Assembly: GCA_965262915.1 (NCBI GenBank) | Contig: OZ253564.1 | Location: 896,001-960,000 of the forward strand | From: Candidatus Spongiisociaceae bacterium | Lineage (GTDB): Bacteria > Actinomycetota > Acidimicrobiia > Spongiisociales > Spongiisociaceae | Length of the DNA stretch: 64,000 bases | Direction: 5' to 3' | Shown here: positions 355-63,241 of the stretch, in pieces | Position numbering within the stretch: position 1 is the stretch's first letter | Layout of the letters: every line of letters begins with the position of its first letter | Translations under genes and position numbers: made by a program | Notes under the pieces: generated by a model | What the model was told of the DNA's origin: nothing | Database searches by the model: none | The model's input: only the letters and a program-made list of their open reading frames with translations

Positions 355-1209
355 CTACCGCTCGACGGGTAGCCCGACCGCCGACCCCCACTCGGTCCAC
401 GATCCGTCATACACCCGGACGTGGTCCCAGCCCAGTATCCGGGTGGCGGTGAACCAGAGCGAGGATGCCCGATGACTAAGCCGGCAATAGGCGACCACCT
501 CGTCGGTCTGGTCAGGCGCCGCCCCCACCGACCGGAACACCACCTCGAGCTCCTCTGGCGTCTTGAGAGTGTTGTCATCGTTGAACAGTCGTCGCCACAT
601 GAGGTGCCTCGCTCCGGGAATGCGGCCGTGGCGTTCAGCCCCGTAATCGAATCCGGTACCCGGTTTGACCCGCTCGCCCAGATATTCCGATTCGTACCGC
701 CCGTCGAGTATCACCAGTCCCGGTTTCCCCAGATCCTCTTTCAGCTCATGGCAGTAGACCCGCGTCGAATCGTCACGTTCGGCCTGCTGCGGTTCGTAGG
801 GCACGGCGGCGAACGTCGGTGTTTCCTTGGTCAATACCCTTCCGTCGAGCTGCCAGCGCTTCTGGGACCCGTCGAGAATCCGAGCGTCGGGATGGCCGTT
901 CATTACCGCGGTCACCCAGTAGGCGAACATGGCGTACTGGTTGCGCCCGCTGTAGAAGACGACGGTCGTCTCGGGTGAGACCCCCCACGCGCCGAAACGT
1001 TCCGCCATGAGCCGGGGGGTCGGGAACTGGCGCTCCGTGGGGTGCCAGAGCACGTCCTTCCAGTACCAGTTGACCGCGCCCGGGATGTGGCCGTCGCGGT
1101 ACTCGCTGATGTCCGCCTCGTACTGGATCTCGATGATCCGCACCGTGGGATCGTCGAGGCGTGCTTCGAGCCAATCGCCCGAGACGAGGGGGGTGGTGGG
1201 GTCAACCAT
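355..1209 (-). CDS. Two-domain rhodanese/sulfurtransferase
   Basis: Y..GHIPGA, GRIPGA, active-site loop YCRLSHRAS, C-terminal YDGSWTEW signature. Confidence 0.93.
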   Translation of the reverse strand: MVDPTTPLVSGDWLEARLDDPTVRIIEIQYEADISEYRDGHIPGAVNWYWKDVLWHPTERQFPTPRLMAERFGAWGVSPETTVVFYSGRNQYAMFAYWVTAVMNGHPDARILDGSQKRWQLDGRVLTKETPTFAAVPYEPQQAERDDSTRVYCHELKEDLGKPGLVILDGRYESEYLGERVKPGTGFDYGAERHGRIPGARHLMWRRLFNDDNTLKTPEELEVVFRSVGAAPDQTDEVVAYCRLSHRASSLWFTATRILGWDHVRVYDGSWTEWGSAVGLPVER

Positions 1210-1252
1210 CGGGTGAGACCTCCGATCTAGTGGACGTATACATGGTCCGCCT

Positions 1253-1714
1253 TCAAAAGGGTTTGAAGATCATCAAGACCAGGATCACGGTCGCAGTGGC
1301 GCGGAGGTAGATGCCTCCTCGACGTATCCGGGTACGTAGCCGCACGATCTCTGCTGCCTTCTCTCGGGTCGGCTCGCCTGCCTGGGCGGACTCGATTATC
1401 CGTGCCAGGGTCGGGTTCTGGACTGTCACCGAATAGGTGAAGCTCCCGGCGAAGAGGATTATCGACACGAGCAGCCACATCCTGTCGAACAGGGCGTAGC
1501 CCCGTACCACCATGAGCCCGATCCCCGACAGCAGCACCAGTGCCGACAGCGGGATGGCCGTGGTGCTGGTGAGCAGGCGGACCACCCGAGTCGCGAAGAG
1601 GCTGTGTTCGGTGCCGGCGCCCCGCTTGCTGATCCTCCCGAACACGAAGGTGGGGCCGATCCCGGCCATCGCGCCGAACAGGTGCAGGAACAGGAGGATA
1701 CCGAAGAGATCCAC
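1253..1714 (-). CDS. DUF2269-like integral membrane protein
   Basis: About 4 hydrophobic helices, LFLHL.GA...IG near N-terminus, terminal LMIFKPF motif. Confidence 0.75.
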   Translation of the reverse strand: MDLFGILLFLHLFGAMAGIGPTFVFGRISKRGAGTEHSLFATRVVRLLTSTTAIPLSALVLLSGIGLMVVRGYALFDRMWLLVSIILFAGSFTYSVTVQNPTLARIIESAQAGEPTREKAAEIVRLRTRIRRGGIYLRATATVILVLMIFKPF

Positions 1715-1717
1715 GCT

Positions 1718-2572
1718 TCAGCTTCCGTTCCCTCCGGTTACCCGGGGTTGCCACGCCCTCCGTCCGCCCCGGCGTTCGAACCTCCCGAAGGTCGGGTGGT
1801 TCAGATGACCGGCTGCGACGAGGGTGCAGTCCTCTTCCAGCTGCCTGAGTTCCCGTTCTCGCGTCATGACCGCCTCCTCGGGGTCGGCGTCGAACCGGTG
1901 TACCCAACCTGTCTCGGTCGCTATGACCGGATGGTGGATGAGGTCACCGAGGATGAACAGCCGCTCGCCGGCCGAGTGGACTATGAAGCTCGTATGGCCG
2001 GGGGTGTGCCCCGGCGTGGCGACTGCCGTCATAGAACCGGTGAGGCGGTGGCCGTCCGAGAAGGTGTCGAGCACCCCTAAGCGGTCCAAGGGCAGGGCCT
2101 GGCGGGCGATGTTCGGATGGTTTTGGTCCCGGGACGTGAAGAACGCCCAGTCAACCTCGGAGACGAGATAGCGGGCGTTCTCGAAGCGGGGGGAGATCGT
2201 GTCCCCGTCGTAGACCAGATTCCAGCCTACGTGATCGGCGTGTAGATGGGTGAAAGCCACCATATCGATATCTCTCGGGAGCAAGTCCATCTCCCCGAGC
2301 CGATCCAGCAGGGCACCGCGAGCCTTGGGTGCGCCGGGAGGGCCTAGTTCGGGGCCCCAACCGGTGTCGATCAACACGACCCGGTCGTTGCCACGCACCA
2401 CGAAGCAGTGGAAGTTGACCATGGCGTTTCCCGGATCGGTCTCGATCAGATCCAGGTACGGCGCCCATGCCTCTTCGGGAACTCCCGGGTAGTGCCAACT
2501 CCGGTCAAAGCCGTGGGCCTTGTCCTGTATAGCGGTCACCTCGACGTTGCCGACCCGGACAGTCGTTCTCAT
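1718..2572 (-). CDS. MBL-fold metallo-hydrolase
   Basis: LIDTG, THLHADHVGW, PGHTPGH, GD and AGH motifs; ATG at 2572 overlaps the upstream stop (ATGA). Confidence 0.92.
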   Translation of the reverse strand: MRTTVRVGNVEVTAIQDKAHGFDRSWHYPGVPEEAWAPYLDLIETDPGNAMVNFHCFVVRGNDRVVLIDTGWGPELGPPGAPKARGALLDRLGEMDLLPRDIDMVAFTHLHADHVGWNLVYDGDTISPRFENARYLVSEVDWAFFTSRDQNHPNIARQALPLDRLGVLDTFSDGHRLTGSMTAVATPGHTPGHTSFIVHSAGERLFILGDLIHHPVIATETGWVHRFDADPEEAVMTRERELRQLEEDCTLVAAGHLNHPTFGRFERRGGRRAWQPRVTGGNGS

Positions 2573-3975
2573 TGCGAGTTCCGGTGGCCGCCGGCGGGAG
2601 GATGGAAGTCGGCCCGCTTGCACAGATCGGCGAGCCGTGTGTTCGCGTCATCGACGACCGCGGGCGTGTCGACGGTGGTCAGCCGCCCGTGACGCTTCAG
2701 GATCCTTCCGTCGACCATCACGGTGTCGACGTTCGACGGTTGGGCCGAATGCACGATGGCCACCGCGGGATCCCGGACCGGCGCCATGTTCAGAGTGTCG
2801 GTTCTGACCATCATCAGGTCGGCACGTTTCCCGACGGTCAGGGATCCGACCAGATGATCCAGCCCCAGGGCTCGTGCTCCTTCTATCGTCGCCAACTCCA
2901 AGGCTCGGCGAGGACTCAGCGCTTCGGCATCCAGGTTGGCGATGGCCTCCAACCCGACCGCGACCCGCATCGCCGAGAAGACATCCGCGCAGGCCGAGAT
3001 GGCGGTGGTGTCGAGTGACAGGCTGACGGAGATGCCCGCTGCTAGGTGTCCGTTTATCGGCGGGGCGCCCATGCCCAACCGGAGGGAGGACAGGGGGCTC
3101 ATGGTCACCGGGATCCGGTTGGCAGCGAGGTGCTCACGCTCGCGCGGGGAGATGTAGAGGCAGTGGGCCAGGAGCATGTCAGGTCCGAGGAGCCCCTCTT
3201 CGTGAAGTATGTGGACTTGGTGGATCCGTTTCACCTCCGCCTGCGTCCCGGCGCAATGCATAGAGATCGTCAAACCCTGCTCCCGCGCCAACGCCCACTC
3301 CCTGCGATAGACATCGGGAGTCGACCGCGCCGGCCCCCGAACTCCCACGCCGAGCGTCAGAAGGTCTTTCGAGTTCGGCAACCACTCGTCGGCGATCCTA
3401 CGGATGTTTCCGAAGTCCATCACCTCGTCGGGCAGGACACCGCCTTTCTCCAGGATGGCCCGCATCTTTTGCATCGGCATCGAAGGATGCGCCGAAGGTG
3501 CGGAATAGGAGAAATGCACACGGGTGCCCAGTCGACGGTGGACATCGAGGTTGGCCTCGGCGTCGCTGTATCGCATGATGTTGTGTGACCAGTCGTGGAC
3601 GGTCGTGACGCCGGCCGCTATGCCCTCGGCCATTCCGAGAAGCACTCCCGCCGCGAGGTCTCCCGACGTTAAGAAGCTTCCGAGCCTGCCCTTGGTGGCG
3701 AACCACCCATGTTTCTTCCCGTCGCCAACCACACCTCTGAGTAGGGTGGCCCACACGTGCCAATGCGAATCGACGAAACCGGGCAGGGTGATGGTGTTCC
3801 TTCCGTCGATGGTCTCGGCGCCGCCGGCAGCTAGCCGCGACCCGATCGTCACCAGCTTCCCGTTGTCGATTTCGATGTCCGTTCCGGCCAGTTCCCCTGA
3901 AGCCGGATCCATAGTCAGCGCCGTGGTGTCGCGTATGACATAGTGACCGCGCCGGGGAAGGTTCTGAACAGCCAT
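2569..3975 (-). CDS. Amidohydrolase family protein (SsnA/MtaD/AtzA-like deaminase fold)
   Basis: PGFVDSHWH, AGVTT, MHCAG, AHC, SLSLD, AT..GA.ALG, GSL.VGKRAD; start set at 3975 after an AAGGA RBS rather than ORF-track 4239. Confidence 0.9.
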   Translation of the reverse strand: MAVQNLPRRGHYVIRDTTALTMDPASGELAGTDIEIDNGKLVTIGSRLAAGGAETIDGRNTITLPGFVDSHWHVWATLLRGVVGDGKKHGWFATKGRLGSFLTSGDLAAGVLLGMAEGIAAGVTTVHDWSHNIMRYSDAEANLDVHRRLGTRVHFSYSAPSAHPSMPMQKMRAILEKGGVLPDEVMDFGNIRRIADEWLPNSKDLLTLGVGVRGPARSTPDVYRREWALAREQGLTISMHCAGTQAEVKRIHQVHILHEEGLLGPDMLLAHCLYISPREREHLAANRIPVTMSPLSSLRLGMGAPPINGHLAAGISVSLSLDTTAISACADVFSAMRVAVGLEAIANLDAEALSPRRALELATIEGARALGLDHLVGSLTVGKRADLMMVRTDTLNMAPVRDPAVAIVHSAQPSNVDTVMVDGRILKRHGRLTTVDTPAVVDDANTRLADLCKRADFHPPAGGHRNSQ

Positions 3976-4015
3976 GTACGGGATCCTTGTCAGAGCATGG
4001 AGGGCTTGGCCAGCG

Positions 4016-4030
4016 AGCATACCGTATACA
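4016..4030. promoter_or_regulatory. Candidate GntR operator AGCATACCGTATACA
   Basis: Imperfect palindrome 40 bp upstream of the amidohydrolase start; recurs at 4367, 5245 and 47871. Confidence 0.65.
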
Positions 4031-4366
4031 GTCGGACCCGACGGACGGAGCGGGTGCGAGGGGCGGTCCGATTCCGGCATCCTTGCCTGGTCGTCGTTTC
4101 GCATGTGGGCGCGTACTCCCGCAGCCCGATTCCACCGGCAGGGGTGAAACGCCGGGGAGGTGGATACAATCGGTAAGACCTTCTGATCTGCGACAGCAGC
4201 CATAGGTAAGGGTGGCTTGGGGGCGGGGATGAGAAGCAACTGCCTGTGAGTGGAATATCAGGCGGATTGACCGGGCTAGGGCTGGTTTTCGATAGCGAGT
4301 CGGTGGATTCGGGCTGGGACCAGGCCCAGGTTTGTGGGGTTCCTCCCTCCTAACGGAACCCGATCC

Positions 4367-4381
4367 TGCATACAATATGCC
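4367..4381. promoter_or_regulatory. Candidate GntR autoregulatory operator TGCATACAATATGCC overlapping a TACAAT -10-like hexamer
   Basis: Directly upstream of the GntR ATG at 4385; same motif family as 4016, 5245 and 47871. Confidence 0.6.
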
Positions 4382-4384
4382 GCC

Positions 4385-5113
4385 ATGCAAACGGCTGAGG
4401 AGCACTCCGACAACCCGCGTACCGGGGTAAGCGGGTCTCCCCTCCTCGCGGCCGTCGAACCGCTAAGCGCCGAGGAGGCTGTGACGGTTGCTCTGCGGGA
4501 CGCGATCCTCAGCGGACGGTTGGCGCCCGGTGCGCGTCTGGCCCAGGCCGAATTGGCCAGACAACTCGGTGTCAGCCGAATCCCACTACGCGACGCGCTG
4601 CGTCGGCTGGGCGAAGAGGCCCTCGTGAAGATCGACGGGCGGCGGGGCGCCTGGGTGACCGCTCTGTCCAAACGCGACATAGCGGAGATATACGAGCTCA
4701 GGATCATGCTGGAAGGTCGATGCATCCGGTATGCGGTGCGGAACCTGGCCGACGAGGACGAGCGGGAGGCGCTGGTCGAACTGTCCGAGCACATGGACAG
4801 CTCCGACCGGGACGTGATGGAGGGAAGAGCTGCCCGGCGCAAGTTCTACGACGTTCTCTATTCGCATGCCGGCCGACCCCGGATGCACCGCCTCATCATG
4901 CAACTGCGGGACAACGTCGGTCGCTATCACCTGCTCCAGGACACCGACCTGTCCCACGCCGCCCACTCGGAGGTGCGCCACTGTATCAACAGCGGAGATG
5001 TGCCCGGCGCCGCCCTCGCGGTGACCGCCCACCTCGAGGAAGCACGAGACGACCTTCTGGCAACGATGACGGACGAGTCTCCACCTAACACCCCGGCCGC
5101 TTCTCGTAGGTAG
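4385..5113 (+). CDS. GntR family transcriptional regulator (FCD domain)
   Basis: LRDAILSGRLAPGARL..ELA.QLGVSRIPLRDALRRL wHTH; IYELR.MLE and H..V...I..GD FCD motifs. Confidence 0.95.
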   Translation: MQTAEEHSDNPRTGVSGSPLLAAVEPLSAEEAVTVALRDAILSGRLAPGARLAQAELARQLGVSRIPLRDALRRLGEEALVKIDGRRGAWVTALSKRDIAEIYELRIMLEGRCIRYAVRNLADEDEREALVELSEHMDSSDRDVMEGRAARRKFYDVLYSHAGRPRMHRLIMQLRDNVGRYHLLQDTDLSHAAHSEVRHCINSGDVPGAALAVTAHLEEARDDLLATMTDESPPNTPAASRR

Positions 5114-5244
5114 CTCCTCCATTGCCAACCGGAACACCCACACCCGCCTCAGCGGTCTCCATGCCGGACCGCTTGGGTGCCGCTTGGCACTGGCGGCTGC
5201 TCCCGGCGACTGTCGTGCCGGGATCCGCTCGGAATTCGGTTGCT

Positions 5245-5259
5245 TGCATAACGTATACA
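5245..5259. promoter_or_regulatory. Candidate GntR operator TGCATAACGTATACA
   Basis: 56 bp upstream of hydantoinase A start; overlaps a TACAAT hexamer. Confidence 0.65.
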
Positions 5260-5315
5260 ATCTCGGCATGGACCTTACGAACCCCCTTTCAGTATCGCGT
5301 CCGGCGGGAGGTGAC

Positions 5316-7487
5316 ATGTACCGGGTAGCCATCGATGTAGGCGGCACGTTCACCGACTGTCTGGTGCTCGACGAGCGGAGCGGCGACCTGCGCCAGTTCA
5401 AGGCCCCCACAACTCCCGCGGATCCTTCGATCGGCTGTATCAACGGCCTTTCGAAAGCCGCGGCGGCCTACGGACTTTCGCTGCCCGCCTTCCTGGGTCG
5501 GGTGGAACTTCTCATTCACGGCACGACTCTGGCGACCAACACCCTCATCAACGAGGACGGCGCTAAGACCGGGATGATCACGACCAAGCACTTTCGGGAC
5601 ATGCTGGAGATACGGCGCGGCTACAAGAACGTGCGAGTGTCGATGTACAACGTGTTCATCCCGCCTTACAAGCCTTTGATCCCGAGACGTCTGCGGCTCG
5701 AGGCGGAGGAGCGCGTCCTGTACACGGGCGAGGTTCTCACCCCTCTGAACGAGGATGACGTTCGAGAGGCGGCCCGACGGCTCGGCCGCGAGGGGATCGA
5801 GTCGGTCGCGATCGGTTTCCTGCACTCCTATGCCAACCCCGGTCACGAGCTACTCGCGGCCGAGATCGTGCGGGAGGAACTAGGTGACGAGGTCTACGTC
5901 ACGACATCGTCCCAGATCCTCCCGGTCTGGAGAGAGTGGGAGCGCTTCTCGACGATGGCGGTGTCGGCTTACACGGGCCCGGCGGTGAAGCGCTACCTGC
6001 TGGCTCTCGAGAGCCGTCTTGCCGAGAACGGCTTCGCGGGCAGCCTGATGATGATGCTCTCGGATGGTCTCGTGGAGACGGTCGAGAACTGCATTCCTCG
6101 GGCTGTCTACCTGATCGGATCCGGACCGGCGGCCGCACCTGCCGGGGCCGTACACCTAGGGGACGAAACCGGCCACCGGAACCTTCTCAGCTTCGACATG
6201 GGGGGAACGTCTATCGACATCGGGGTGGTGATGGGAGGCGAGATTCCCACCACCTCGGAGGGGTGGGTCCAGGACGAGCGCGTAGCCATCAAGATGGTGG
6301 ACATAGTCTCGGCCGGCGCCGGCGGAGGCTCGATAGCGTGGGTCGATTCGCTGGGCCTGCCGCGGGTCGGTCCGAACTCGGCCGGGAGCGATCCGGGACC
6401 GGCCTGCTACGCCAAGGGCGGTGAGAACCCGACGGTCACCGACGCGGACCTGGTGCTCGGCTACATAGACCCCGGATACTTCCTGGGGGGCGAGATAGAG
6501 CTCGACGTCGAACTGGCCGAGCGCGCTATCAGGCGAAAGGTGGCGGAGCCGCTCGGGATGACCTCAGAGGAGGCTGCCCAGGCGATAATGACCGCGGTCA
6601 GCTCCTTCACAGCCGACGAGATCAACGAAGTATCCACTCGCCGCGGCATAGATATCCGTGATCTCACCCTCGTGGCAGGGGGCGGGGCCGGGCCGGCGCA
6701 CGCGGCGTTCATCGCCGACATTCTGGGCCTCCCGCATGTGATCATTCCCTCGGTGGCCTCGACCTACTCGGCGTTCGGGATGTTCGCCATGGACGTGGGC
6801 CGTAACTACGCCCGTTCCTACATCACCCGCTACGCAGATCTCGATTCTGATCGGGTACAGGTGCTGTACGAGGAGATGGAGCAGGAGGCCATCGCAGGTT
6901 TCGAGGAAATGGGATACGAGGCGAGCGACGTGAGCTTCTTCCGGACCGCCGATCTCCGCTACATAGGCCAGTTTCACGAGGTGGAGGTCGAGATGCCGAT
7001 GGACCCCGGTCAGGATCCGGCCGCGACCGCCGAGAAGACCTTCAGGGCGAGTGTGTTCCGGGACGCCGGCGGAATGAGAATGCTCGACGCAGTCGAGGAA
7101 GCCATCGAGAACTTCCACGCCAAGCACTTCGACCTGTACACCTTCAACATGCCCTGGCAGGGCGTGGAACTGTTGACGTTCCGGTTGCGGGCGACCGTCC
7201 CGAGGGCGCCCTTCGAGCTCCAGCGGATCGCCGAGGGCGGGCCCGATCCGTCGGCCGCGCTCAAGGCGCATCGGAAGTGCTGGTTCGACGGGAAGGCGGT
7301 TCGTACCCCGATCTTCGACGGTGGTCGCCTGCTGGCGGGTAACCGGATCTCCGGTCCGGCGATCATCGAGGAGCCGACGACGACGGTGGTCATTCCCAAG
7401 TCGTACGTCGCTACGGTCGACGCACAACGGAGCTACCACCTAGCCCGCAGTGCAACGGCTGCCAACGTGACAGGAGGCGCGGTATGA
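5316..7487 (+). CDS. Hydantoinase/oxoprolinase subunit A (ATP-binding)
   Basis: IDVGGTFTD, HGTT.ATN, SGPAA, DMGGTS, GAGGGSIA, PGPACY, PTVTDA; GGAGGTG RBS before ATG 5316. Confidence 0.95.
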   Translation: MYRVAIDVGGTFTDCLVLDERSGDLRQFKAPTTPADPSIGCINGLSKAAAAYGLSLPAFLGRVELLIHGTTLATNTLINEDGAKTGMITTKHFRDMLEIRRGYKNVRVSMYNVFIPPYKPLIPRRLRLEAEERVLYTGEVLTPLNEDDVREAARRLGREGIESVAIGFLHSYANPGHELLAAEIVREELGDEVYVTTSSQILPVWREWERFSTMAVSAYTGPAVKRYLLALESRLAENGFAGSLMMMLSDGLVETVENCIPRAVYLIGSGPAAAPAGAVHLGDETGHRNLLSFDMGGTSIDIGVVMGGEIPTTSEGWVQDERVAIKMVDIVSAGAGGGSIAWVDSLGLPRVGPNSAGSDPGPACYAKGGENPTVTDADLVLGYIDPGYFLGGEIELDVELAERAIRRKVAEPLGMTSEEAAQAIMTAVSSFTADEINEVSTRRGIDIRDLTLVAGGGAGPAHAAFIADILGLPHVIIPSVASTYSAFGMFAMDVGRNYARSYITRYADLDSDRVQVLYEEMEQEAIAGFEEMGYEASDVSFFRTADLRYIGQFHEVEVEMPMDPGQDPAATAEKTFRASVFRDAGGMRMLDAVEEAIENFHAKHFDLYTFNMPWQGVELLTFRLRATVPRAPFELQRIAEGGPDPSAALKAHRKCWFDGKAVRTPIFDGGRLLAGNRISGPAIIEEPTTTVVIPKSYVATVDAQRSYHLARSATAANVTGGAV

Positions 7488-9259
7488 AAGCCGACACCAT
7501 CGACCCGATCACCCTGTCGACCATCTGGAACTCCTTCCAGAGCATGGGTCGCGAGATGCGACACGTGATCGACCGCACCGCGCAGAACTACCTGATCGCC
7601 CAACTCCACGACATGGCGGCGGGTATCTGGGATGCGCAGGCCCGTACCATCGCGGTGCCCGAGGGGCCGACCTCCATGTTCCTGTCGCAGCAGTTCTCGG
7701 TCGAGTACATCCTCGACAAGTTCGGCGACGACCTCCACCCGGGGGATGTCATCATCTGCAACGACCCTTATAAGGGGTACTGCAACCACCTTCCGGACTG
7801 GGGCTTCTTCCGGCCCATCTTCTACGAGGACGAGCTGGTCTTCGTAGCCCTCACCCGCGGGCACCAGCTCGACACAGGGGGTGCCTTCCCCGGCGGCTAC
7901 TTCCCCAACGGCTACGACATCCACGCCGAAGGGTTGATGATCCCTCCGACCAAGATCTACGACCGGGGCCGGGAGCGCACCGATGTGCTCGAGCTCATCT
8001 GGAACAACGTCCGCTGGCCCGACGGCGTGAAGATCGACAACTACGCGCTGATGGCCGCGCTGCAGGTCTGCGACAACCGGGTCGTCGCCCTGCTCGACAA
8101 GTACAGCCTCCCGACGGTCAAAGAAGCCGTGGAGGAGATGCTCGACCGTATGGAGACCAACGTTCGTGCCCAGCTGGCCGAGGTTCCCGACGGCACCTAT
8201 TACGGCGAATCGGCAACCGACGACGACGGCACCGTTCTCGACGAGCAAGTGTGGGTCCGGTGCGCGGCGACCATCAAAGGCGACGAGCTCATCCTGGACT
8301 TCTCCGAAAGCGACGCGCAGCGGCGCGGCTTCGTCAACTGTGTATATTCGTCGACCTACAGCCGGGCGGTGGCAGGGAGCTTCCTGTACTTCGATCCCAC
8401 CTACTCGGAGTTCCACAACGAGGGCAGCATGCGCCCCATCACAGTGGTCGCTCCCGAAGGTTCGGTCTGCAATGCCCAGTACCCGGCGACGGTCGGCGGC
8501 TCTCCGGTGAACGTGGGGACGCAGGTGCTCGAGGCGACGGTGAGCGCTCTGTCGAAGGCCATGCCGGACAAGGCGATCGCCGGATGGGGGCGGCGTCGAG
8601 GCCACTACATCGCCGGTGTCGACCCCCGCACGGGGGAGCGGTACGTACAGACCACCACCGACGCGGACGGCGGATCGGGTGCCGTTTGGGGATACGACGG
8701 ATTCGAAGGGGCGATGGGAATGTCCGGCCTTGGTTCGATCCGGAGGGGCAGCGTCGAAGAGATCGAGATCAGGTTCCCGTGGCGGGCCGTGCGCTACCAC
8801 TACGTCCCGGACATGTCCGGCGCCGGTCGCTGGCGGGGAGGATCGGGAATGCTGTGGGAGGTGGAGAACGTCGGCGGGGATGTCGGCGTGGCCACCGGTA
8901 GCTCGGACGGGGATCTCACCCAGCCTCCGGGAGCGGGCGGTGGCGAAGACGGTCCGCTATCGAGGATGTACCTCCGCCGGGGTGATGAGACGATCCCGGC
9001 CCGAACCCACCGGATGGTGCAGGTCAGGACAGGCGAGATCCTCGGAAAGGTCAGCGGCGGCGGTGGTGGGGTAGGGGATCCCACCGAGCGTGAGCCCGAG
9101 AAGGTACTCGATGACGTAATGAACGAGTGGGTGACGCTCGAGCATGCCCGGAACGTCTACAAGGTGGTGATCGACCCTGAATCGATGACCATCGACAGAG
9201 AGCAGACCAGGCTGCTCCGGAGCTCCACCGGCGCTTCCCCAGAGAAGACCGAGACCTAG
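7484..9259 (+). CDS. Hydantoinase B/oxoprolinase family subunit
   Basis: DP.TL, NDPY...NHLPD, H..D.GG..PG, EGL.IPP, G.GR.RGG.G, GGGGG.GDP..R; ATGA-coupled to subunit A. Confidence 0.95.
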   Translation: MKADTIDPITLSTIWNSFQSMGREMRHVIDRTAQNYLIAQLHDMAAGIWDAQARTIAVPEGPTSMFLSQQFSVEYILDKFGDDLHPGDVIICNDPYKGYCNHLPDWGFFRPIFYEDELVFVALTRGHQLDTGGAFPGGYFPNGYDIHAEGLMIPPTKIYDRGRERTDVLELIWNNVRWPDGVKIDNYALMAALQVCDNRVVALLDKYSLPTVKEAVEEMLDRMETNVRAQLAEVPDGTYYGESATDDDGTVLDEQVWVRCAATIKGDELILDFSESDAQRRGFVNCVYSSTYSRAVAGSFLYFDPTYSEFHNEGSMRPITVVAPEGSVCNAQYPATVGGSPVNVGTQVLEATVSALSKAMPDKAIAGWGRRRGHYIAGVDPRTGERYVQTTTDADGGSGAVWGYDGFEGAMGMSGLGSIRRGSVEEIEIRFPWRAVRYHYVPDMSGAGRWRGGSGMLWEVENVGGDVGVATGSSDGDLTQPPGAGGGEDGPLSRMYLRRGDETIPARTHRMVQVRTGEILGKVSGGGGGVGDPTEREPEKVLDDVMNEWVTLEHARNVYKVVIDPESMTIDREQTRLLRSSTGASPEKTET

Positions 9260-9368
9260 GAGAATGCTGAAACACGGTGGTAGCGGTTAGCCCTCCGTCC
9301 GCTGACCAGGTAGTTTGCCATCGGCCGTCGGGCCAACGGGGCGTTTCTCAGCACTCTCCTAGGCCCGT

Positions 9369-10328
9369 ATGAACGAACCGATCCCGCCGACGGATCTGGA
9401 GATCCTGAGGCGAATGTGGCTCATCAGGGTATTCGAAGAGAAGGCCTCGGAGCTCTATGCCAGCGGTCAAGTTGCAGGGTTGCTCCACCTCGGCATCGGT
9501 CAGGAGGGCTCGGCGGTCGGGACCTGTGCCGCCCTCCGGTCCGGCGACTACGTATTCGGTAACCACCGGTCCCACGCGCATGCGATTGCCAAGGGAGCGG
9601 ACCTCCGACGGTTGATGGCCGAGATCGCGGGCCGCTCGACCGGCTACTGCAAGGGCAAGGGCGGATCGATGCACATCTCCGCTCCCGAGGTGGGGTTCAT
9701 CACCGCCACCGGTGTGGTGGCCGGGAACATCCCGCTGGCGTTGGGGGCCGCCCTGACGAGCGCCACGAGGAACGAGGATCGGGTGTCCGTGGCCTTCTTC
9801 GGCGACGGCGCCGGACAGAGCGGTGCCTTCCACGAGAGCCTCAACCTGGCGGCGCTCTGGAAGCTTCCGGTGATCCTCGTCTGCGAGAACAACGGTTACG
9901 TCGAGTTCTCGCCTCTCTCCGCCCATACGGTCGTGGAACGCTTGGCGGACTACGCCTCCGTGTACTCGATTCCGTCCGTCACCGTCGACGGCGGTGATGT
10001 GCTGGCGGTCAGAGGCGCTGTCCAGGATGCGGTAGGCCTTGCCAGAGAGGGTGGCGGACCGTCCTTCGTGGAGGTGCTCACCCACCGCTTGCGCGGTCAT
10101 TACGAAGGCGATCCCGCCACTTACCGGAAGCTGTCGGAACGGGACGAATGGAAACGGAAGGACCCCGTCGCGCGCTTCGCGAGATACCTGCTGGACGGCG
10201 GGGTGACACCGGAGTTCCTGGCGGAGATCGAGATGGAGGCCCGTGCTGCGGTCGCCACGGCCGCCGACCAGGCTCTACGGGATCCGGTTGCCGACCCGCG
10301 GGAGTTGATCAGCGACGTGTACGTCTGA
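9369..10328 (+). CDS. ThDP-dependent dehydrogenase E1 alpha subunit (AcoA/PdhA-like), copy 1
   Basis: HL..GQE, HRSH, GKGGSMH, GDGA...ENN ThDP motif, HRLRGHYEGD. Confidence 0.93.
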   Translation: MNEPIPPTDLEILRRMWLIRVFEEKASELYASGQVAGLLHLGIGQEGSAVGTCAALRSGDYVFGNHRSHAHAIAKGADLRRLMAEIAGRSTGYCKGKGGSMHISAPEVGFITATGVVAGNIPLALGAALTSATRNEDRVSVAFFGDGAGQSGAFHESLNLAALWKLPVILVCENNGYVEFSPLSAHTVVERLADYASVYSIPSVTVDGGDVLAVRGAVQDAVGLAREGGGPSFVEVLTHRLRGHYEGDPATYRKLSERDEWKRKDPVARFARYLLDGGVTPEFLAEIEMEARAAVATAADQALRDPVADPRELISDVYV

Positions 10329-11341
10329 TGACCGCCCGGGTTCGATACATCGAGGCTATCCGGCAGGGGTTGCGGTTCTCCCTGGAGTCCGACCCTTCGG
10401 TTGTCGTGTTGGGCGAGGATGTGCGATACGGAGGACCCTTCGGCGCTACCCGGGGGTTGGCCGACGATTTCGGTAAGGCCCGCATCCTCGACACCCCGAT
10501 CAGCGAGGCCACCGTGATGGGTATGGCAACCGGAGCAGCGACCACCGGTCTGCGACCCGTGGTCGAGATCATGTTCGTCGACTTCGTAACCCTGGCGATG
10601 GACCAGTTGGTCAACCATGCCGCCAAGCTGGGCTTCATGACCGGTGGTGGCCTCCGGGTACCGCTGACTGTCCGGGTCCAGGGTGGTGTCACCGGTCGGT
10701 TCGGTGCCCACCACTCCCAGAGCCTCGAGTCGTGGTTCGTCCATACACCGGGTCTCAAGGTGGTGGCGCCCGCCTTTCCCGGTGACGCCAAGAAACTCCT
10801 CGAGGTAGCGATCGCCGACGACAACCCGGTGGTGTACGTGGAGCACCGGGGTCTGTACTGGAGGAAGGGTGACGTTTCGGGTGATGAGCCCGCATCGGGA
10901 GCGATCGTCCGGCGCTCCGGTGACGATGTGACCCTCATCTCCTACTCGAGGATGGTCCACCAAGCTCTGGAGGCGGCGGATACTCTCTCCGCAGAGGGGA
11001 TCGAGTGCGAGGTGATCGACCTCCGCTGGCTAGCTCCTTTGGATCTGGGACCGGGGCTCGAATCTCTGCACCGCACGGGTCGGGTAGTCGTAGCCCACGA
11101 AGCCGTTACTACGAGCGGGGTGGGGGCTGAGGTGGTCGCCCGTCTGCAGGATGCAGCCTACGGTGAACTGGTCGCCCCGATCGCGCGGGTCGGTGCACCG
11201 TTCGCTCCGGTGGGCGCCGCTCCGGAACTGGAGGACGCGTACCTTCCCGGTAGCGAAGATATCGTAGGGGCGGTTCGTGGGCTACTCGGTCTGGCCGTTC
11301 CCCGAACGGATCGACGAAGGGAGGAAACTCATGATCCCTGA
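10328..11341 (+). CDS. E1 beta subunit (AcoB/PdhB-like), copy 1
   Basis: LGEDV, DTPISE, EIMF.DF, AHHSQS, EVIDLR.L.PLD; TGATG coupling to alpha. Confidence 0.93.
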   Translation: MTARVRYIEAIRQGLRFSLESDPSVVVLGEDVRYGGPFGATRGLADDFGKARILDTPISEATVMGMATGAATTGLRPVVEIMFVDFVTLAMDQLVNHAAKLGFMTGGGLRVPLTVRVQGGVTGRFGAHHSQSLESWFVHTPGLKVVAPAFPGDAKKLLEVAIADDNPVVYVEHRGLYWRKGDVSGDEPASGAIVRRSGDDVTLISYSRMVHQALEAADTLSAEGIECEVIDLRWLAPLDLGPGLESLHRTGRVVVAHEAVTTSGVGAEVVARLQDAAYGELVAPIARVGAPFAPVGAAPELEDAYLPGSEDIVGAVRGLLGLAVPRTDRRREETHDP

Positions 11342-12350
11342 CCTACCCGTTGATCGGCTCGCCGACTACCTGCGCCGGATGCTGGTGATCCGGCGTTTCG
11401 AGGAGGCGCTGATAATGCTGGCCGGCGATTACGACGTCGGTCACTTCCACGTATACATCGGGCAGGAAACCACCGGCGTGGCCGCGTTGGCCCAGCTCGA
11501 GCCGGGAGACCTGGCTTTCACCACCCACAGGAACCACGGCCACCTCCTGGCGAGGGGCACCGATCCGGGGGCCATGTTCGCTGAGATCCTGGGCAAGGGA
11601 ACCGGCACCAACCGTGGCAAGGGAGGCACCCTCCACATCGCCTCGGTCGAGAACGGATTCCCCACCACGTCGGCGGCTACCGGAGGCTGCACGCCGCTGG
11701 CGACCGGCGCCGCTTTCGCATTCTCCCGGCTGGGTAAGGACCGGGTGTCGGTCTGTTTGTTCGGTGACGGGGCTCTCGAGGAGGGCACCTTCCACGAGTC
11801 GATCAACATCGCCGCTCTCGAGTCCCTCCCCGTCATCTACCTGTGCGAGAACAACAGCTTGGAGGCACTCGGTCAGAAGGCCAACGAGTACCCGTCCTCG
11901 ACCATGGCTGCGGCGCCGCTGACCGATCTGGCCGCCGCCTTCAAGGTGCCGACCATCACGGTGGACGGTACCGATGCCGGGGCGGTCCACGATGCGATGG
12001 CCACGGCCATCAGCCGGGCACGCGGCGGCGGGGGACCCACTTTCATAGAAGCCCTCACGGTTCGCTGGCCGGGAAGCCGTCCCCTCTGGCCGCAGCTCCT
12101 GACCGGTCCGACCGACCTCTCCTACGCCTGGGAGGCCTCGGCGGTCCCGGCCGACTACGCGGTCTGGCACACCGAGCAGGACGGCCTGCTCCGGTACGTT
12201 CGGGAACTGGTTGCCGCCGGGGCGCTGACCAGGGACGAGGCCTTGGCGATGGACGAGGAGATCACGGATCAGATGAGGAACGCCGTGCAGTTCGCGCTGG
12301 ACAGCCCGTACCCACCCGCCGCCAGCGCCCTCGAGTCCGTCTACGCATAG
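11331..12350 (+). CDS. Divergent E1 alpha subunit, copy 2
   Basis: GQE, THRNHGH, GKGGTLH, GDGA...ENN; RxxGH loop replaced by RWPGS; GGAGG RBS. Confidence 0.88.
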   Translation: MIPDLPVDRLADYLRRMLVIRRFEEALIMLAGDYDVGHFHVYIGQETTGVAALAQLEPGDLAFTTHRNHGHLLARGTDPGAMFAEILGKGTGTNRGKGGTLHIASVENGFPTTSAATGGCTPLATGAAFAFSRLGKDRVSVCLFGDGALEEGTFHESINIAALESLPVIYLCENNSLEALGQKANEYPSSTMAAAPLTDLAAAFKVPTITVDGTDAGAVHDAMATAISRARGGGGPTFIEALTVRWPGSRPLWPQLLTGPTDLSYAWEASAVPADYAVWHTEQDGLLRYVRELVAAGALTRDEALAMDEEITDQMRNAVQFALDSPYPPAASALESVYA

Positions 12351-12430
12351 TGGTGTGTCTGTGAAATGGCGATGTGGCATGCAGGACACGGCGAATCACT
12401 CTTGCGGACGTACCACTAGGGAGGATGGGA

Positions 12431-13417
12431 ATGCGTGAAATGCTCTACGCCGAGGCGCTGGTCGAGTCGTTGCGTCACCAGCTGGCAACCGACGAGCGGG
12501 TCCACCTGATGGGCCTCTACTTCCTTGGTCTCACCAAGCACCGGGAGATCATGGCGCGCCTGCATGCGGACTATCCGGGCCGGGTATACCACCCACCCAT
12601 CGCTGAGGTGGGGTACGTGGGTGTGGCGATAGGCGCCGCGGTAGCCGGGTTGAGACCGATCGTCGACATCGCCACCGCCAGCTTCATCTTCCAGGCCTTC
12701 CCCCAGATCGTGAACGAGGCGGCCAACATCCACTACATGTCCGGCGGGGCCACGAAGGTGCCGATGATCTTCCACTTCAACCACGGGATCCGGGGCGGGG
12801 GGGCAGCCCAGCACTCGCACAGCCCGCAGGCGATGCTGTGGAACACGCCGGGGTTGGAGATAATGGCCCCCTCCACTCCCCGGGACGTCAAGGGCTTGGT
12901 CAACACCGCTGCCGCATCCGGCAATCCGACCGCCTGGGTGGATCATGTGCGCCTGTTCGACACCCGGGGACCCGTTCCCGACGACGAGGACTTCTCGATC
13001 CCCTTCGGGGTGGCGGATGTCAAGCGCACGGGCGGGGACGTGACCCTGTTCGCGTCGTCCTGGATGGTGCAGCGCGCCCTTGAGGCGGCGGAGACCCTGA
13101 GCGCGGAAGGTATCGAAGCGGAGGTGATCGACCCCCGGACACTTTCCCCGCTGGACGAGCAGGCGATCCTCGAATCGGTCGCCAAGACCGGACGCCTGGT
13201 GGTGGTGGACGAATGCCACCGCCGGTGTGGCGTGGCCGCCGAGATCATGGCGGTGGTCACGGAAAACGCCTTCGGAGATCTGGTGGCGCCTCCGGTGAGG
13301 GTGACGACGGCGGATGTGCCCGTACCGTTCAGCCCCCCGCTGGAGCAGCACATAGAACCGACCACCGACAAGATCGTCGCCGCCGTGCAGGTGGTAGTCG
13401 GCGCCACTGCGGGGTAG
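12431..13417 (+). CDS. Divergent E1 beta subunit, copy 2
   Basis: PPIAE, AQHSHS, EVIDPRTL.PLD, KTGRLVVVDE; GED motif replaced by GLY; GGAGG RBS. Confidence 0.88.
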   Translation: MREMLYAEALVESLRHQLATDERVHLMGLYFLGLTKHREIMARLHADYPGRVYHPPIAEVGYVGVAIGAAVAGLRPIVDIATASFIFQAFPQIVNEAANIHYMSGGATKVPMIFHFNHGIRGGGAAQHSHSPQAMLWNTPGLEIMAPSTPRDVKGLVNTAAASGNPTAWVDHVRLFDTRGPVPDDEDFSIPFGVADVKRTGGDVTLFASSWMVQRALEAAETLSAEGIEAEVIDPRTLSPLDEQAILESVAKTGRLVVVDECHRRCGVAAEIMAVVTENAFGDLVAPPVRVTTADVPVPFSPPLEQHIEPTTDKIVAAVQVVVGATAG

Positions 13418-13647
13418 GCGAGCCTGGAACCCGAGCGGATAGGCAGTCTTAACCCCGGCCAAGGGTCGTCGAAGAGTGGTGTCTGTGCTGTGGTCGAGGA
13501 TTTCGGCCGGTTCGGAGGAGCTGTCAAGCCTCCATGTAGCCTCTGGTCAGCGTTCCCTCGGGTGAAGAGGAGTTGGACGACCGGCGTGACGCCTGATGGA
13601 TACCTGCACCAACGCATGGAGCGTCCTTCCGGAAGAGCTTGCTCGTG

Positions 13648-15900
13648 ATGGACTTGGGCCACGTCTCGGTGCGGCTGGAGGACCGACCGCTGATCACCGG
13701 CGCCGGTCGATATGTGGGCGATCTGGTGGACGCCGATACGCTCCACTGTGCATTCGTCCGTAGCCCGGTCGCCCATGGCAATCCGGCGCCACCGGATCTC
13801 GCCGATGTCCGGGACCTTCCGGGTGTCGTCGCCGTCTTCGGCGCCGACGATCTCGACTTGCCGGATATGCCGTCGTCGCCCGGCCCCGGAGCGCCGGAGG
13901 CCGCCGGTATGGGTCAGCCGCCACTGGCCCGCGACCGTGTGCGTCACGTAGGAGATCCGATCGCGGTCGTGGTCGCCGAGTCGGCTGTGCAGGCAGTGGA
14001 CGCCGCAGACATGGTGTGGGTCGACGTTGAAGAGCTTCCGGCCACCGATGTCGTATCCGCACGGGCCGACGAAGTGTTGCTGTTTCCCGAGAGCGGCACG
14101 AACGTGGTGCATCGCTCAACCATCAGGACCGAAGGGCCTCGTCCCGCCGTCGAGATCGAAGTATTCGTCGAGATAGACATCCCGAGGCTCTCGCCTGTGA
14201 CCATCGAGCCCCTAGCCATCCTCGTGCGTCCGGTGGGCCAAGGACTCGAGGTGTGGTGTGGCCATCAGACGCCTGCCGGTTTTCCGGACCAACTCGGAGC
14301 GATGCTGGGCATCGACCCGTCGACGATCAGGGCCAGGGTGCCGGACGTCGGTGGTGGCTTCGGTGCGAAGGGCCAGTTCTACCCGGAGTATCCGGTCGTC
14401 GCGGCCATCGCTCATGGCCTGGGCAGACCGACGGTCTGGCTGCAGAGCCGGACCGAGCAGCTCATGTGCGGCACGCACGGTCGAGCCCAGCACATCACGA
14501 TGCGGATCGGTGGCGACCGTGACGGGCGAATCCGTTACCTCTTGGCTGATGTGGTGGGCGATGCGGGGGCCTACCCGAGCGCCGGAGCGCGTGTCCCGCT
14601 CTTCACCCGGTCCGTGATCCAGGGCCCCTACGACATCGAGCATCTCGAAGCCACCGCAACAGCGGTGGTCACCAACCGGGCGCCGACCGGTCCGTACCGT
14701 GGCGCCGGCAGGCCGGAGGCAGCCATCGCTATCGAACGCGCCGTGGACGCGTTCGCGGTGGCCGTCGGGCTGCTGCCCGAGCACGTTCGGAAGCGTAACT
14801 TCGTCGATCCGGCCGATTTTCCGTATACGAGTCACACCGGGTCGATCTACGACTCCGGCGACTACGTGGCCGCTCTGGAATTGGCCCTCGAGACGGCCGA
14901 TGTCGGCCGGTGGCGGCGCCTCAAGGAGAAGCGGCGAGCCGATGGCGGGGATCCGATCGGCATCGGTATCGGCTCGTTCATCGAACGCGCCGGGGGTGCG
15001 GTCGGTTCCGGCGAGTACGGGAAGGTCGAGCTCCTGCCCGACGGCGGCGTTGTCGTCCGAACCGGATCCACCGCAGCCGGCCAGGGACATCGGACGGTCT
15101 GGTCCCAGATCGCCGCCGGCGTCTTGTCCGTTCCTGTCCAGCGTGTGACCTTCTACGCGGGCGATACCGGTGAAGTGGCAGGCGGCGTCGGCAGCTTCGC
15201 TAGCCGTTCCGCCCAGTTGGGAGGAACGGCGATCCTACGAACCGCCCGCGAGGTACGGGCCCGGGCCGCCGCGGTGGCCGCCGGCATGCTCGAGGCGTCA
15301 GAGGCGGACCTTGTTCTGGTGGACGGGAGCTTCGGCGTCGTCGGCTCGCCGGGCGCGGGGGTCACGCTCGCCGAGGTGGCGGCCGAGGCAAGAGCCGCCG
15401 GTGTCGAGCTTGCCGCCGAGGAGATGTACGTAGGCAAGGCGCAAACCTTTCCCTTCGGCAGTTACGTGGCGGTGGTCGAGGTCGAGCGTGAGACGGGCCA
15501 AGTCGGGCTTCTGTTGCTCGTCGCGGTCGATGACTGCGGCAACGTGCTCAACCCGATGATCGTTGAGGGTCAGGTGCATGGCTCGATCATGCAGGGGATC
15601 GGCGAGGCGCTGCTGGAGGAGATCGTCTACGACGCCGACGGTCAGCCGATGAACAGCAACATGACGGGATATCTGGTACCCACGGCTACCCAGCCTTTCC
15701 CGCTGACGATCCTGCGGACGACCACTCCGGCGCCCGGCAATCCTCTCGGGGTCAAGGGAACAGGCGAGGCCGGCTGTATCGGCACTCCGGCAGCAATCCT
15801 CAACGCGGTGCACGACGCGTTGCGTGAAGACGGGGTAATGGCCTTGAGCCTCCCTCTCACTCCGGCCCGGGTGTGGGCGGCGATCCGATCAGTCGGATAG
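13648..15900 (+). CDS. Xanthine dehydrogenase-family molybdopterin-binding large subunit (CoxL form II-like)
   Basis: R.ED..L.TG.G.Y..D, VGGGFG.K, PYRGAGRPE, GQGH.T, GSFASRS, NP.IVEGQ.HG, KG.GE.G; start could be 13639-13648. Confidence 0.92.
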   Translation: MDLGHVSVRLEDRPLITGAGRYVGDLVDADTLHCAFVRSPVAHGNPAPPDLADVRDLPGVVAVFGADDLDLPDMPSSPGPGAPEAAGMGQPPLARDRVRHVGDPIAVVVAESAVQAVDAADMVWVDVEELPATDVVSARADEVLLFPESGTNVVHRSTIRTEGPRPAVEIEVFVEIDIPRLSPVTIEPLAILVRPVGQGLEVWCGHQTPAGFPDQLGAMLGIDPSTIRARVPDVGGGFGAKGQFYPEYPVVAAIAHGLGRPTVWLQSRTEQLMCGTHGRAQHITMRIGGDRDGRIRYLLADVVGDAGAYPSAGARVPLFTRSVIQGPYDIEHLEATATAVVTNRAPTGPYRGAGRPEAAIAIERAVDAFAVAVGLLPEHVRKRNFVDPADFPYTSHTGSIYDSGDYVAALELALETADVGRWRRLKEKRRADGGDPIGIGIGSFIERAGGAVGSGEYGKVELLPDGGVVVRTGSTAAGQGHRTVWSQIAAGVLSVPVQRVTFYAGDTGEVAGGVGSFASRSAQLGGTAILRTAREVRARAAAVAAGMLEASEADLVLVDGSFGVVGSPGAGVTLAEVAAEARAAGVELAAEEMYVGKAQTFPFGSYVAVVEVERETGQVGLLLLVAVDDCGNVLNPMIVEGQVHGSIMQGIGEALLEEIVYDADGQPMNSNMTGYLVPTATQPFPLTILRTTTPAPGNPLGVKGTGEAGCIGTPAAILNAVHDALREDGVMALSLPLTPARVWAAIRSVG

Positions 15901-60315: not shown

Positions 60316-60344
60316 ACAACCCACGTTCCGACCGAAAGGCATGG

Positions 60345-60542: not shown

Positions 60543-60570
60543 TCGGTCTACCGAGTTGGGGTGACTCTGC

Positions 60571-62963: not shown

Positions 62964-63085
62964 GGGGAATAGGGGGAGGTGTGGTTGAAGCGGGCATCAC
63001 ATTTCCCATAGGATATATCTTTGTGAGGGGAGCCCTCCTTCAGGTCGCCGCCCCTGCACGGAACCAGACTGGTAGGAGGCTCAAC

Positions 63086-63232: not shown

Positions 63233-63241
63233 GGACAGATC

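Follow-up and report, generated by a model that had tools for sequence, protein, structure and literature searches.

We analysed 64,000 nucleotides of the forward strand of a Candidatus Spongiisociaceae bacterium genome (assembly GCA_965262915.1, contig OZ253564.1, positions 896,001-960,000; this whole stretch is called the window, and positions are counted from its first letter). In it, two consecutive gene pairs, alpha1/beta1 (pair 1) and alpha2/beta2 (pair 2), encode chains resembling the alpha and beta subunits of E1, the component of 2-oxoacid dehydrogenase complexes that depends on thiamine diphosphate (ThDP), and they follow genes for the two subunits, HyuA and HyuB, of an ATP-dependent hydantoinase/lactamase-like enzyme (HyuAB). 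The original prediction, made from the letters alone, had described alpha1-beta1-alpha2-beta2 as one run, and open reading frames (ORFs) and Pfam matches confirmed four E1-type genes at 9369-13417. Between 4334 and 13417, seven genes lie head to tail on the plus strand, from a GntR-type regulator to beta2, and the gene of a molybdoenzyme subunit is the eighth:

4334..5113, plus strand: GntR/FCD-family regulator (Pfam GntR 2e-15, FCD 2e-14)
5184..7487, plus strand: HyuA-like subunit of an ATP-dependent hydantoinase/lactamase (Pfam Hydant_A_N, Hydantoinase_A, Hydant_A_C)
7484..9259, plus strand: HyuB-like subunit (Pfam Hydantoinase_B 1.7e-136)
9369..10328, plus strand: E1 alpha1, canonical type (Pfam E1_dh 2e-73; loop THRLRGHYEGDPATYRK kept)
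10328..11341, plus strand: E1 beta1, canonical type (Pfam Transket_pyr and Transketolase_C; GEDV, PISE, EIMFVDF and HHSQ kept)
11331..12350, plus strand: E1 alpha2, "WPG" type (Pfam E1_dh 6e-53; 339 aa)
12374..13417, plus strand: E1 beta2 (Pfam Transket_pyr and Transketolase_C; QHSHSP and PPIAE kept)
13639..15900, plus strand: lone large molybdopterin-binding subunit of the xanthine dehydrogenase/CO dehydrogenase family (Pfam Ald_Xan_dh_C, MoCoBD_1, MoCoBD_2)

Neighbouring genes overlap by 4 bases (HyuA/HyuB), 1 base (alpha1/beta1) and 11 bases (beta1/alpha2, 11331-11341), the ATG of HyuB overlapping the stop codon of HyuA and that of beta1 the stop codon of alpha1. The true start of HyuA is probably near 5310, and beta2 likely starts at 12431 (MREMLY...), where homology begins. 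The GntR/FCD protein is likely the regulator of the operon; a homolog was found at the same place in the close relatives L001-L005, L022, L032 and L033 among the 78 related loci that we compared (numbered with L). A scan of the operon for promoter and terminator patterns gave no match above chance. Two sequencing runs, guessed to be RNA, contain a few short contigs that match the window exactly, among them 9151-9371 and 12191-12373; we conclude nothing from them. All four E1 chains scored under the NCBIfam equivalog/subfamily cut-offs: the model PDH_E1_alph_y gave 322 bits for alpha1 and 232 bits for alpha2 against a cut-off of 394, and the models of the pyruvate dehydrogenase (PDH) E1 beta subunit gave 308 against 321 for beta1, and 284 against 454 and 279 against 321 for beta2. 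The E1_dh match of alpha2 stops at position 227 of the 300 positions of the profile.

Alpha1 and beta1 were canonical at every motif checked, and alpha2 and beta2 matched solved E1 structures with phmmer E-values of 3e-32 and 2.5e-61, respectively. When alpha2 was aligned with human PDH E1 alpha, VRWPGSR lay under YRYHGHS, so that the His of the R..GH loop, present in alpha1, is a Ser in alpha2, and about 14 extra residues follow it; the R..GH...D....YR loop of E1 alphas is replaced by TVRWPGSRPLWPQLLTGPTDLSYAW. Alpha2 keeps GDG...ENN, with a 5-residue insert after ENN. In the alignment of beta2 with human E1 beta, GEE is changed to GLY and EFMTFNF to DIATASF, while the Glu is kept where PISE is changed to PIAE and the His where QHSQ is changed to QHSH; beta2 lacks GED and reads RPIVDIATASFIFQAFPQ instead. 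These alignments bear out the original reading of the motifs, in which alpha2 keeps GDG...NN and has RWPGS for the RxxGH loop, and beta2 keeps the PIAE Glu and QHS and loses GED and EIMFxDF. The ThDP-binding GDG-X(25-30)-NN motif in alpha and the ThDP-activating Glu in beta are thus present, and they are conserved in both clades described below; the active-site His of the beta subunit is present in beta1 and beta2. An AlphaFold model of alpha2 (a monomer without cofactor; pLDDT 79.7, pTM 0.85) has the E1-alpha fold, with Foldseek TM-scores of about 0.74 against human PDH and branched-chain 2-oxoacid dehydrogenase (BCKDH) E1 alpha; the WPG loop is modelled with middling-to-good confidence, and the insert after ENN and the loop at 99-118 are poorly predicted.

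The E1 of 2-oxoacid dehydrogenase complexes is a textbook case of substrate channelling through lipoate. We take the alpha His of the R..GH loop to be H271 in Geobacillus PDH, H263 in human PDH and H291 in BCKDH, and the beta His to be H128 in Geobacillus and H146' in BCKDH. The titles of PDB entries 1OLS, 1OLU and 1OLX name roles of His291-alpha and His146-beta' in reductive acylation. According to PMC2663715, E59-beta activates ThDP, H271-alpha is proposed to assist acetyl transfer to lipoate and to turn toward the dithiolane in this transfer, and H128-beta takes part in both half-reactions and is proposed to be the proton donor to lipoate.

To place these changes among homologs, alpha2 was used as query in a word-indexed search that returned 3388 matches, the best 120 of which were 65-90% identical and nearly all exactly 339 aa long; a 17-sequence alignment showed conservation of TVRWPG[SN]RP.WP..L.TG and of the insert ENNSLEALGQ. 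Among 120 alphas taken from the related loci and the window's own genome, 71 were alpha2-type (T..W[PA]G, then S, N, G or T, plus the insert), and the loop His was absent from all 71. The other 49 (the cassette alpha1 and nine own-genome paralogs) had the canonical loop; most read R..GH, and the Gly or the His is missing from a few of the own-genome paralogs. A single branch (SH-aLRT 100, length 0.90) divided the WPG-type from the GH-type sequences in a quick IQ-TREE run (LG+G4) that included the loop columns. Beta2-type sequences co-vary with alpha2: they have no GED, read RPIVD.(A/G)T(A/G)SF...(A/P)..Q, and keep the Glu and the QHS His. Common to both alpha clades at 90% or more are G145/G147 of GDG, E173-N174-N175, H40, H66-R67, H69, H71 and H102, and common to both beta clades are the ThDP-activating Glu (E78) and H147-S148.

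The clade also extends well beyond the close relatives. When 1.84 billion cluster representatives were searched exhaustively, 14006 matches at E <= 0.001 were obtained; among the best 150 of these, which are representatives at 50% identity, 144 cover the loop, with 77 of GH type and 36 with W-P-G (35 of the 144 under a stricter test of no His plus the insert), and the clade therefore covers dozens of 50%-identity clusters. More distant alpha2/beta2 pairs (40-47% identity) occur in Binatia and delta-proteobacterial metagenome-assembled genomes (MAGs), where HyuAB is absent and the neighbours are NMT1-type binding proteins, TctC, amidohydrolases, RidA-like proteins and alpha/beta-hydrolases. A tblastn search of a plasmid collection with alpha2 gave 649 records, all below 60% identity, and no cultured carrier; the plasmid matches were ordinary E1 alphas, with at most 39% identity in the 25 listed. 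The ESM Atlas returned generic E1 clusters only.

Alpha2 is under purifying selection, with ratios of nonsynonymous to synonymous substitution rates (dN/dS) of 0.09-0.17 against nine relatives (9 of 9 pairwise comparisons). Substitutions unique to this genome had been named as a sign of decay in the original prediction; the motifs proved to be conserved across phyla. A genome with about 11 E1 alpha/beta pairs makes redundancy conceivable, and we considered decay of a recently duplicated, redundant E1 pair. This was rejected as having practically no chance of being right, because the frames are intact, more than 120 same-length homologs share at least 65% identity, the dN/dS values are low and the motifs hold across phyla; moreover, alpha2 is 39% identical to alpha1, below the identity of alpha1 to other paralogs (42-46%). 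Pair 2 is a conserved, selected and remodelled E1.

Pair 2 keeps all that is required for making the thiamine-bound carbanion/enamine and has the whole loop around the alpha His replaced, and it is therefore most likely independent of lipoate and most likely dispenses with the usual acylation of lipoamide. The loss of the catalytic His and its loop in alpha2, together with the loss in beta2 of GED and of the Asp equivalent to human D91 (Pro in 70% of the clade), could also be expected of a catalytically silent E1 paralog that serves as scaffold, regulator or substrate-binding partner of pair 1 or HyuAB. We regard such a role as very improbable: GDG...NN, the activating Glu and several active-site His residues are invariant in a clade as deep as 40% identity, a non-catalytic protein is not expected to keep those residues, and selection is strong. 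D91 is listed among the proton-wire positions with human beta E59 and Q88 in bioRxiv 10.1101/2022.05.17.492373. The idea that GED and EIMFxDF supply the acids of this proton wire was dropped, because the positions named there differ; of E59, Q88 and D91 only D91 is changed (to Pro), which is a minor point.

Two observations bear on how the chains assemble. The best cluster representative, P0121 (683 aa), is a natural fusion in which residues 1-340 are alpha2-type (51% identity) and residues 357-669 beta2-type (56% identity), the C-terminal half carrying the beta2 motifs. In addition, alpha2/beta2 occurs without alpha1/beta1 in 22 classifiable loci, within each stretch examined. The best reading is that alpha2/beta2 forms its own enzyme, and the fusion and the 22 loci with pair 2 alone speak against an obligatory four-chain tetramer. 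The original prediction had offered as an alternative that all four chains form one asymmetric tetramer, which would be a mixed E1 with one lipoate-competent and one lipoate-incompetent site. Translational coupling of the four genes (overlaps at 10328 and 11331-11341) and their co-occurrence in at least 37 loci, in three different arrangements, fit such an assembly. Against it stand, besides the fusion and the loci with pair 2 alone, the co-variation of the alpha2 and beta2 changes as a pair throughout the clade and the position of pair 1 several kb off on the opposite strand in L047, L062 and L066, and we consider the mixed tetramer very improbable.

As to the partners of the two pairs, the absence of lipoyl, E2 and E3 genes noted in the original prediction was confirmed for the window: Pfam scans showed none of these domains in 53 of its 57 non-overlapping ORFs with a length of 100 aa or more, the ORF at 5-400 being included, beta2 being scanned in its true frame, and four short ORFs at the window end being left out (60312-60629, 61395-62036, 62894-63412 and 63434-63961). 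In the 5.06-Mb genome, the three E2 cores lie at 2.23, 3.05 and 4.24 Mb, and these, all 11 lipoyl/biotinyl domains and the single true lipoamide dehydrogenase are outside C1:896001-960000, that is, outside the window. No lipoyl remnant is present in the 220 bp that separate beta2 from the next gene. The lipoyl protein and E2 core that accompany the cassette in other genomes have no close relative in the window's genome, where the best E2 match, 32% identical, is to housekeeping E2s.

For the related loci, tblastn was run with six own-genome lipoyl domains, two E2 cores and the genome's own E3 (E <= 1e-4 for lipoyl), a search by which divergent lipoyl domains can be missed. A lipoyl ORF was found in 21 loci: it lies 1-150 bp 3' of beta2 in 14 and about 1.1 kb 3' of beta2, past an alcohol dehydrogenase gene, in five, and in L049 and L065, where pair 1 comes last, the lipoyl ORF/E2 follows alpha1/beta1. 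An E2 core follows in 16 of the 21 and an E3 in one (L030), and in L044 and L049 the E2 is complete and includes a subunit-binding domain. When the loci are sorted by pair 1, 19 of the 37 that have alpha1/beta1 carry the lipoyl ORF, against 0 of the 22 without it and 2 of the 9 in which the upstream part is cut off (nine loci with less than 300 bp after beta2 and no match were dropped, and L056 was unclassifiable); Fisher's test gives p = 2e-5 for loci that are not independent of one another. Lipoyl and E2 genes track pair 1, not pair 2.

The lipoyl proteins found in this way are small. In L021 and L014, an 80-aa ORF directly 3' of beta2 is a lipoyl domain (Pfam 3.5e-21, motif ETEKV), and the E2 catalytic domain, without a lipoyl or subunit-binding domain, is encoded by a 233-aa ORF in another frame. 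In L006, the nearest relative beyond the window's clade (alpha2 80% identical), the ATG of an 80-aa lipoyl ORF overlaps the stop codon of beta2; Pfam confirmed the lipoyl domain in L006 and L021. A split E2 of this kind, with a lipoyl protein of about 80 aa and, in a different frame, a core of about 230 aa that lacks the peripheral-subunit-binding domain, was seen in L021 (12019-12971), L014 (3095-4024), L007, L008, L015, L019 and L020; it recurs in several phyla and is therefore not a sequencing error of one MAG. In the window's clade (L001-L003, L005, L022, L032 and L033), no lipoyl ORF was found near the operon by the same search. Because lipoyl and E2 genes occur in related two-pair loci, their absence is therefore local to the window's sponge-type Acidimicrobiia clade. 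The description "without E2/E3" thus holds for the window and its close relatives and fails for the family; the prediction had counted homologs that usually carry E2/E3 as telling against it, and about half do so, with a lipoyl gene after beta2, mostly followed by an E2 core, in the 19 of 37 two-pair loci and in none of the 22 with pair 2 alone.

The window's own genome encodes about 13 HyuA/HyuB pairs besides its roughly 11 E1 pairs, and at least three of the other E1 pairs are followed by a stand-alone lipoyl-domain ORF of 84-93 aa rather than by a full E2 (for example G000:C1 870529-872900, 1018260-1021254 and 1588949-1591115). Encoding a free lipoyl carrier protein next to an E1 pair seems habitual in this organism.

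The position of these small genes raises the question of whether pair 2 itself could still be a lipoate-dependent E1, which would acylate the small free lipoyl protein with the beta His or a clade-specific residue such as H38 as proton donor, and whose new loop would recognise this free carrier in place of an E2-tethered one. In most of the 19 loci the lipoyl ORF lies 33-150 bp after beta2, next to pair 2; the QHS His is invariant in the beta2 clade, and its counterpart H128-beta is the proton donor to lipoate proposed in PMC2663715; H38 is a conserved His of the alpha2 clade that GH-type alphas do not share. On the other hand, no lipoyl/E2 gene lies in the stretch examined of any of the 22 loci with pair 2 alone, the order alpha2-beta2-alpha1-beta1 in L049 and L065 puts the E2 after pair 1, and what is replaced in alpha2 is the entire R..GH...D....YR motif and not one residue. 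A lipoate-dependent pair 2 is unlikely in our judgement.

The association with HyuAB is widely conserved. By tblastn with the window proteins, HyuA/HyuB-alpha1-beta1-alpha2(-beta2) was found on one strand in 29 of the 78 loci, at identities down to 55%, in Acidimicrobiia, several Chloroflexota classes (including Limnocylindrales), Lysobacterales, Burkholderiales and one alphaproteobacterium, and also in groundwater "Deltaproteobacteria" MAGs. HyuAB lies directly 5' of alpha2/beta2, with no pair 1, in L013, L037, L040 and L045, and HyuAB pairs stand on both flanks of alpha2/beta2 in L077; pair 2 reads as more tightly tied to HyuAB than pair 1. Among PDB entries, HyuA matched best with N-methylhydantoinase 7HK5 (4e-126) and caprolactamase 6YRA_A (5e-120), and HyuB gave 273 bits with 6YRA_B and 266 bits with N-methylhydantoinase, against 106 bits with acetophenone carboxylase and 25 bits with acetone carboxylase alpha. 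No ORF at 5184-9369 in the window corresponds to a third small subunit of the carboxylase gamma kind. Because the likeness of HyuB to lactamases is far above that to carboxylases, HyuAB is more likely to carry out ATP-dependent amide hydrolysis than carboxylation.

The wider context holds GntR/FCD and LysR regulators, TRAP, TctC and NitT/TauT-type transporters, deaminase-type and cyclic amidohydrolases, and F420/FMN-type oxidoreductases, with an LLM oxidoreductase, a cyclic amidohydrolase and an FbiC-like radical SAM protein near the operon in L013. Regulators, transporters, amidohydrolases and oxidoreductases together do no more than suggest a small carboxylated N-heterocycle as substrate. 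Creatinine/N-methylhydantoin, 5-hydroxyhydantoins, alpha-keto-lactams, sulfur heterocycles and purine/pyrimidine products were each considered as substrates and dropped for want of discriminating evidence. Full-text literature searches, which do not cover every paper, turned up neither an account of the HyuAB plus double-E1 operon nor one of the WPG clade, and the operon looks like a widespread, conserved and apparently undescribed catabolic route.

We favour, at a probability of about one half, a division of labour in which pair 1 is a lipoate-dependent E1 and pair 2 a lipoate-independent thiamine lyase, decarboxylase or carboligase beside HyuAB. In one catabolic operon, HyuAB would hydrolyse a cyclic amide (lactam or hydantoin) at the expense of ATP, and alpha1/beta1 would act as an ordinary E1 that transfers its acyl group from thiamine to a lipoyl group. 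The bearer of this lipoyl group would in many relatives be the small free lipoyl protein, with the separate E2 core encoded after beta2, and in the window's genome the lipoyl partner of pair 1 would be supplied in trans or not at all. Alpha2/beta2, as an enzyme of its own, would bind and activate ThDP and carry out a non-oxidative reaction without lipoate, either C-C cleavage, decarboxylation or carboligation, on a keto compound that either comes from the ring-opening step or goes into it. There is precedent in PMC12247030 for E1-type alpha/beta enzymes working as carboligases without lipoate.

Several points weigh against this division of labour. The beta-subunit His is kept in beta2, so that the loss of the alpha His alone leaves lipoyl acylation possible. 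The absence of a nearby gene is no proof of independence, since an E2 can act in trans, and a lipoyl gene could have escaped a search that misses divergent domains. Even for pair 1 a lipoyl gene is not obligatory, as 18 of the 37 two-pair loci lack one. The product expected of HyuAB, an amino or carbamoyl acid, is not an obvious substrate for a thiamine enzyme. The structural model, a lone alpha2 chain without cofactor, does not show where the new loop lies with respect to the active site. The original prediction is partly supported overall: its proposal of a lipoate-independent ThDP lyase or hydrolase gains from the finding of a conserved, remodelled E1 without the His loop, and the retained beta His leaves acylation of a lipoyl carrier by pair 2 as a rival reading.

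More tentatively, as a possibility to which we give clearly less weight than to the division of labour itself, alpha2/beta2 may be the founding member of a large "WPG E1" clade, nearly all of it uncultured, that has given up lipoate and performs a new thiamine-dependent C-C cleavage or ligation on the ring-opened product of the lactamase. The WPG E1 might then work in relay with the canonical E1, and a free lipoyl carrier together with a stand-alone E2 core would serve the latter; the whole would be a soluble, modular counterpart of the 2-oxoacid dehydrogenase complexes, with an environmentally common N-heterocyclic carboxylate as its possible substrate.

The WPG clade, in which the thiamine machinery is kept and the lipoate-acylation loop is gone, spans several phyla and dozens of 50%-identity clusters, and its operon occurs in sponge symbionts and in soil, groundwater and freshwater bacteria. 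If the favoured division of labour is true, E1-fold chemistry is widened past the few antibiotic sugar-branching enzymes. The split E2 of the relatives, with a free lipoyl protein and a core without the subunit-binding domain, raises a question of assembly. The WPG motif also provides a simple annotation rule against naming such proteins "pyruvate dehydrogenase E1 alpha".

Around the operon, the molybdoenzyme subunit gene stands 3' of beta2 in the close Acidimicrobiia relatives L001-L003, L005, L022, L032 and L033 and not in other phyla; in the window, this CoxL/XdhA-type subunit (13639-15900) has no adjoining gene for a small (Fe-S) or medium (FAD) subunit. A stretch of lower G+C content at 16000-37200 (52-60% against about 65%) separates it from ZnADH/MFS/ABC genes that adjoin it in L003 and L005, and looks like an insertion into the ancestral locus. 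The stretch contains an ISL3-family transposase (22930-24264), an ABC sugar-type transporter, an S15 peptidase, a dimethylformamidase-like protein and a second HyuA/HyuB pair (28787-32676), about 32% identical to the first, whose neighbours are a formamidase/acetamidase-family gene, Ldh_2, an aldo-keto reductase and a RidA-like gene. Divergent from the operon, on the minus strand at 355-4239, lie genes for a rhodanese, a metallo-beta-lactamase-fold protein weakly like AidB lactonases, and a TRZ/ATZ-type amidohydrolase/deaminase that scores 390.3 bits against the cut-off of 391 of PRK08204; the metallo-beta-lactamase and amidohydrolase genes are kept at the same place in Acidimicrobiia relatives. 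A rhodanese-domain protein is encoded 3' of beta2 in L011 and L012. Directly after beta2 in L046, L063 and L073, three loci that have pair 2 alone, comes the gene of a 260-aa alpha/beta-hydrolase; this protein most resembles 3-oxoadipate enol-lactonase, and less strongly the C-terminal, hydrolase-fold part of AcoC-type acetoin E2 (79 bits against a cut-off of 307). The only cultured organism among the 78 loci is Pigmentiphaga humi (L049, NZ_UWPJ01000013.1), with the order FAD-binding (fumarate-reductase-like) protein, NitT/TauT-type ABC transporter, alpha2, beta2, alpha1, beta1, complete E2 and LysR; it might serve as a genetic model.

When compared with known systems, the HyuAB half of the operon has clear counterparts, although we know of no ATP-dependent lactam or hydantoin hydrolase that is encoded with E1 genes. 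In every Pfam domain and in their two-subunit layout, the window's HyuA/HyuB agree with CapAB (6YRA), N-methylhydantoinase (7HK5) and 5-oxoprolinase, whereas the scores with the NCBIfam caprolactamase models (about 592 bits for HyuA and 351 bits for HyuB) are far under the cut-offs of 1000.

The heterotetrameric E1s (human and Geobacillus PDH E1 and BCKDH E1; PDB 1NI4, 3EXE, 1W85, 1UM9 and 1DTW) resemble alpha2/beta2 in two-gene architecture, fold, ThDP motif, activating Glu and beta His, and resemble alpha1/beta1 in every motif checked. They differ from alpha2, which lacks the loop His and the following D and YR and has inserts of about 14 and 5 residues, and from beta2, which lacks GED and EIMFxDF; E2 and E3 are usually encoded alongside them, whereas the window has none. 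AcoAB (acetoin dehydrogenase E1, or acetoin:2,6-dichlorophenolindophenol oxidoreductase) is also an E1 alpha/beta enzyme, one that cleaves a neutral acyloin rather than a 2-oxoacid, and in vivo it hands the acetyl group to the lipoyl-E2 AcoC. Some alpha2 homologs bear the name of this enzyme at JGI, as a source name only, and the motif THR.H.H, presumably a mark of AcoA, is common to alpha1, alpha2 and the nearest GH-type representatives. Lyase and carboligase chemistry of AcoAB in vitro without E2 is described in PMC12247030.

The known precedent for a lipoate-independent E1 pair, drawn by description and not by sequence, is that of the alpha-KADH2 carboligases (KbDH-alpha/beta of kibdelomycin, and those of aldgamycin, kosinostatin, paulomycin and avilamycin), E1-like pairs that act without lipoate as we propose for alpha2/beta2. 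According to PMC12247030, these enzymes transfer a pyruvate-derived C2 unit to a ketone, and physiologically do so without lipoate. Among the families scanned in the alpha2/beta2 neighbourhoods, no glycosyltransferase or NDP-sugar gene was seen. The alpha-KADH2 enzymes belong to antibiotic deoxysugar clusters, whereas alpha2/beta2 lies in catabolic-looking operons with HyuAB, GntR or LysR regulators and transporters.

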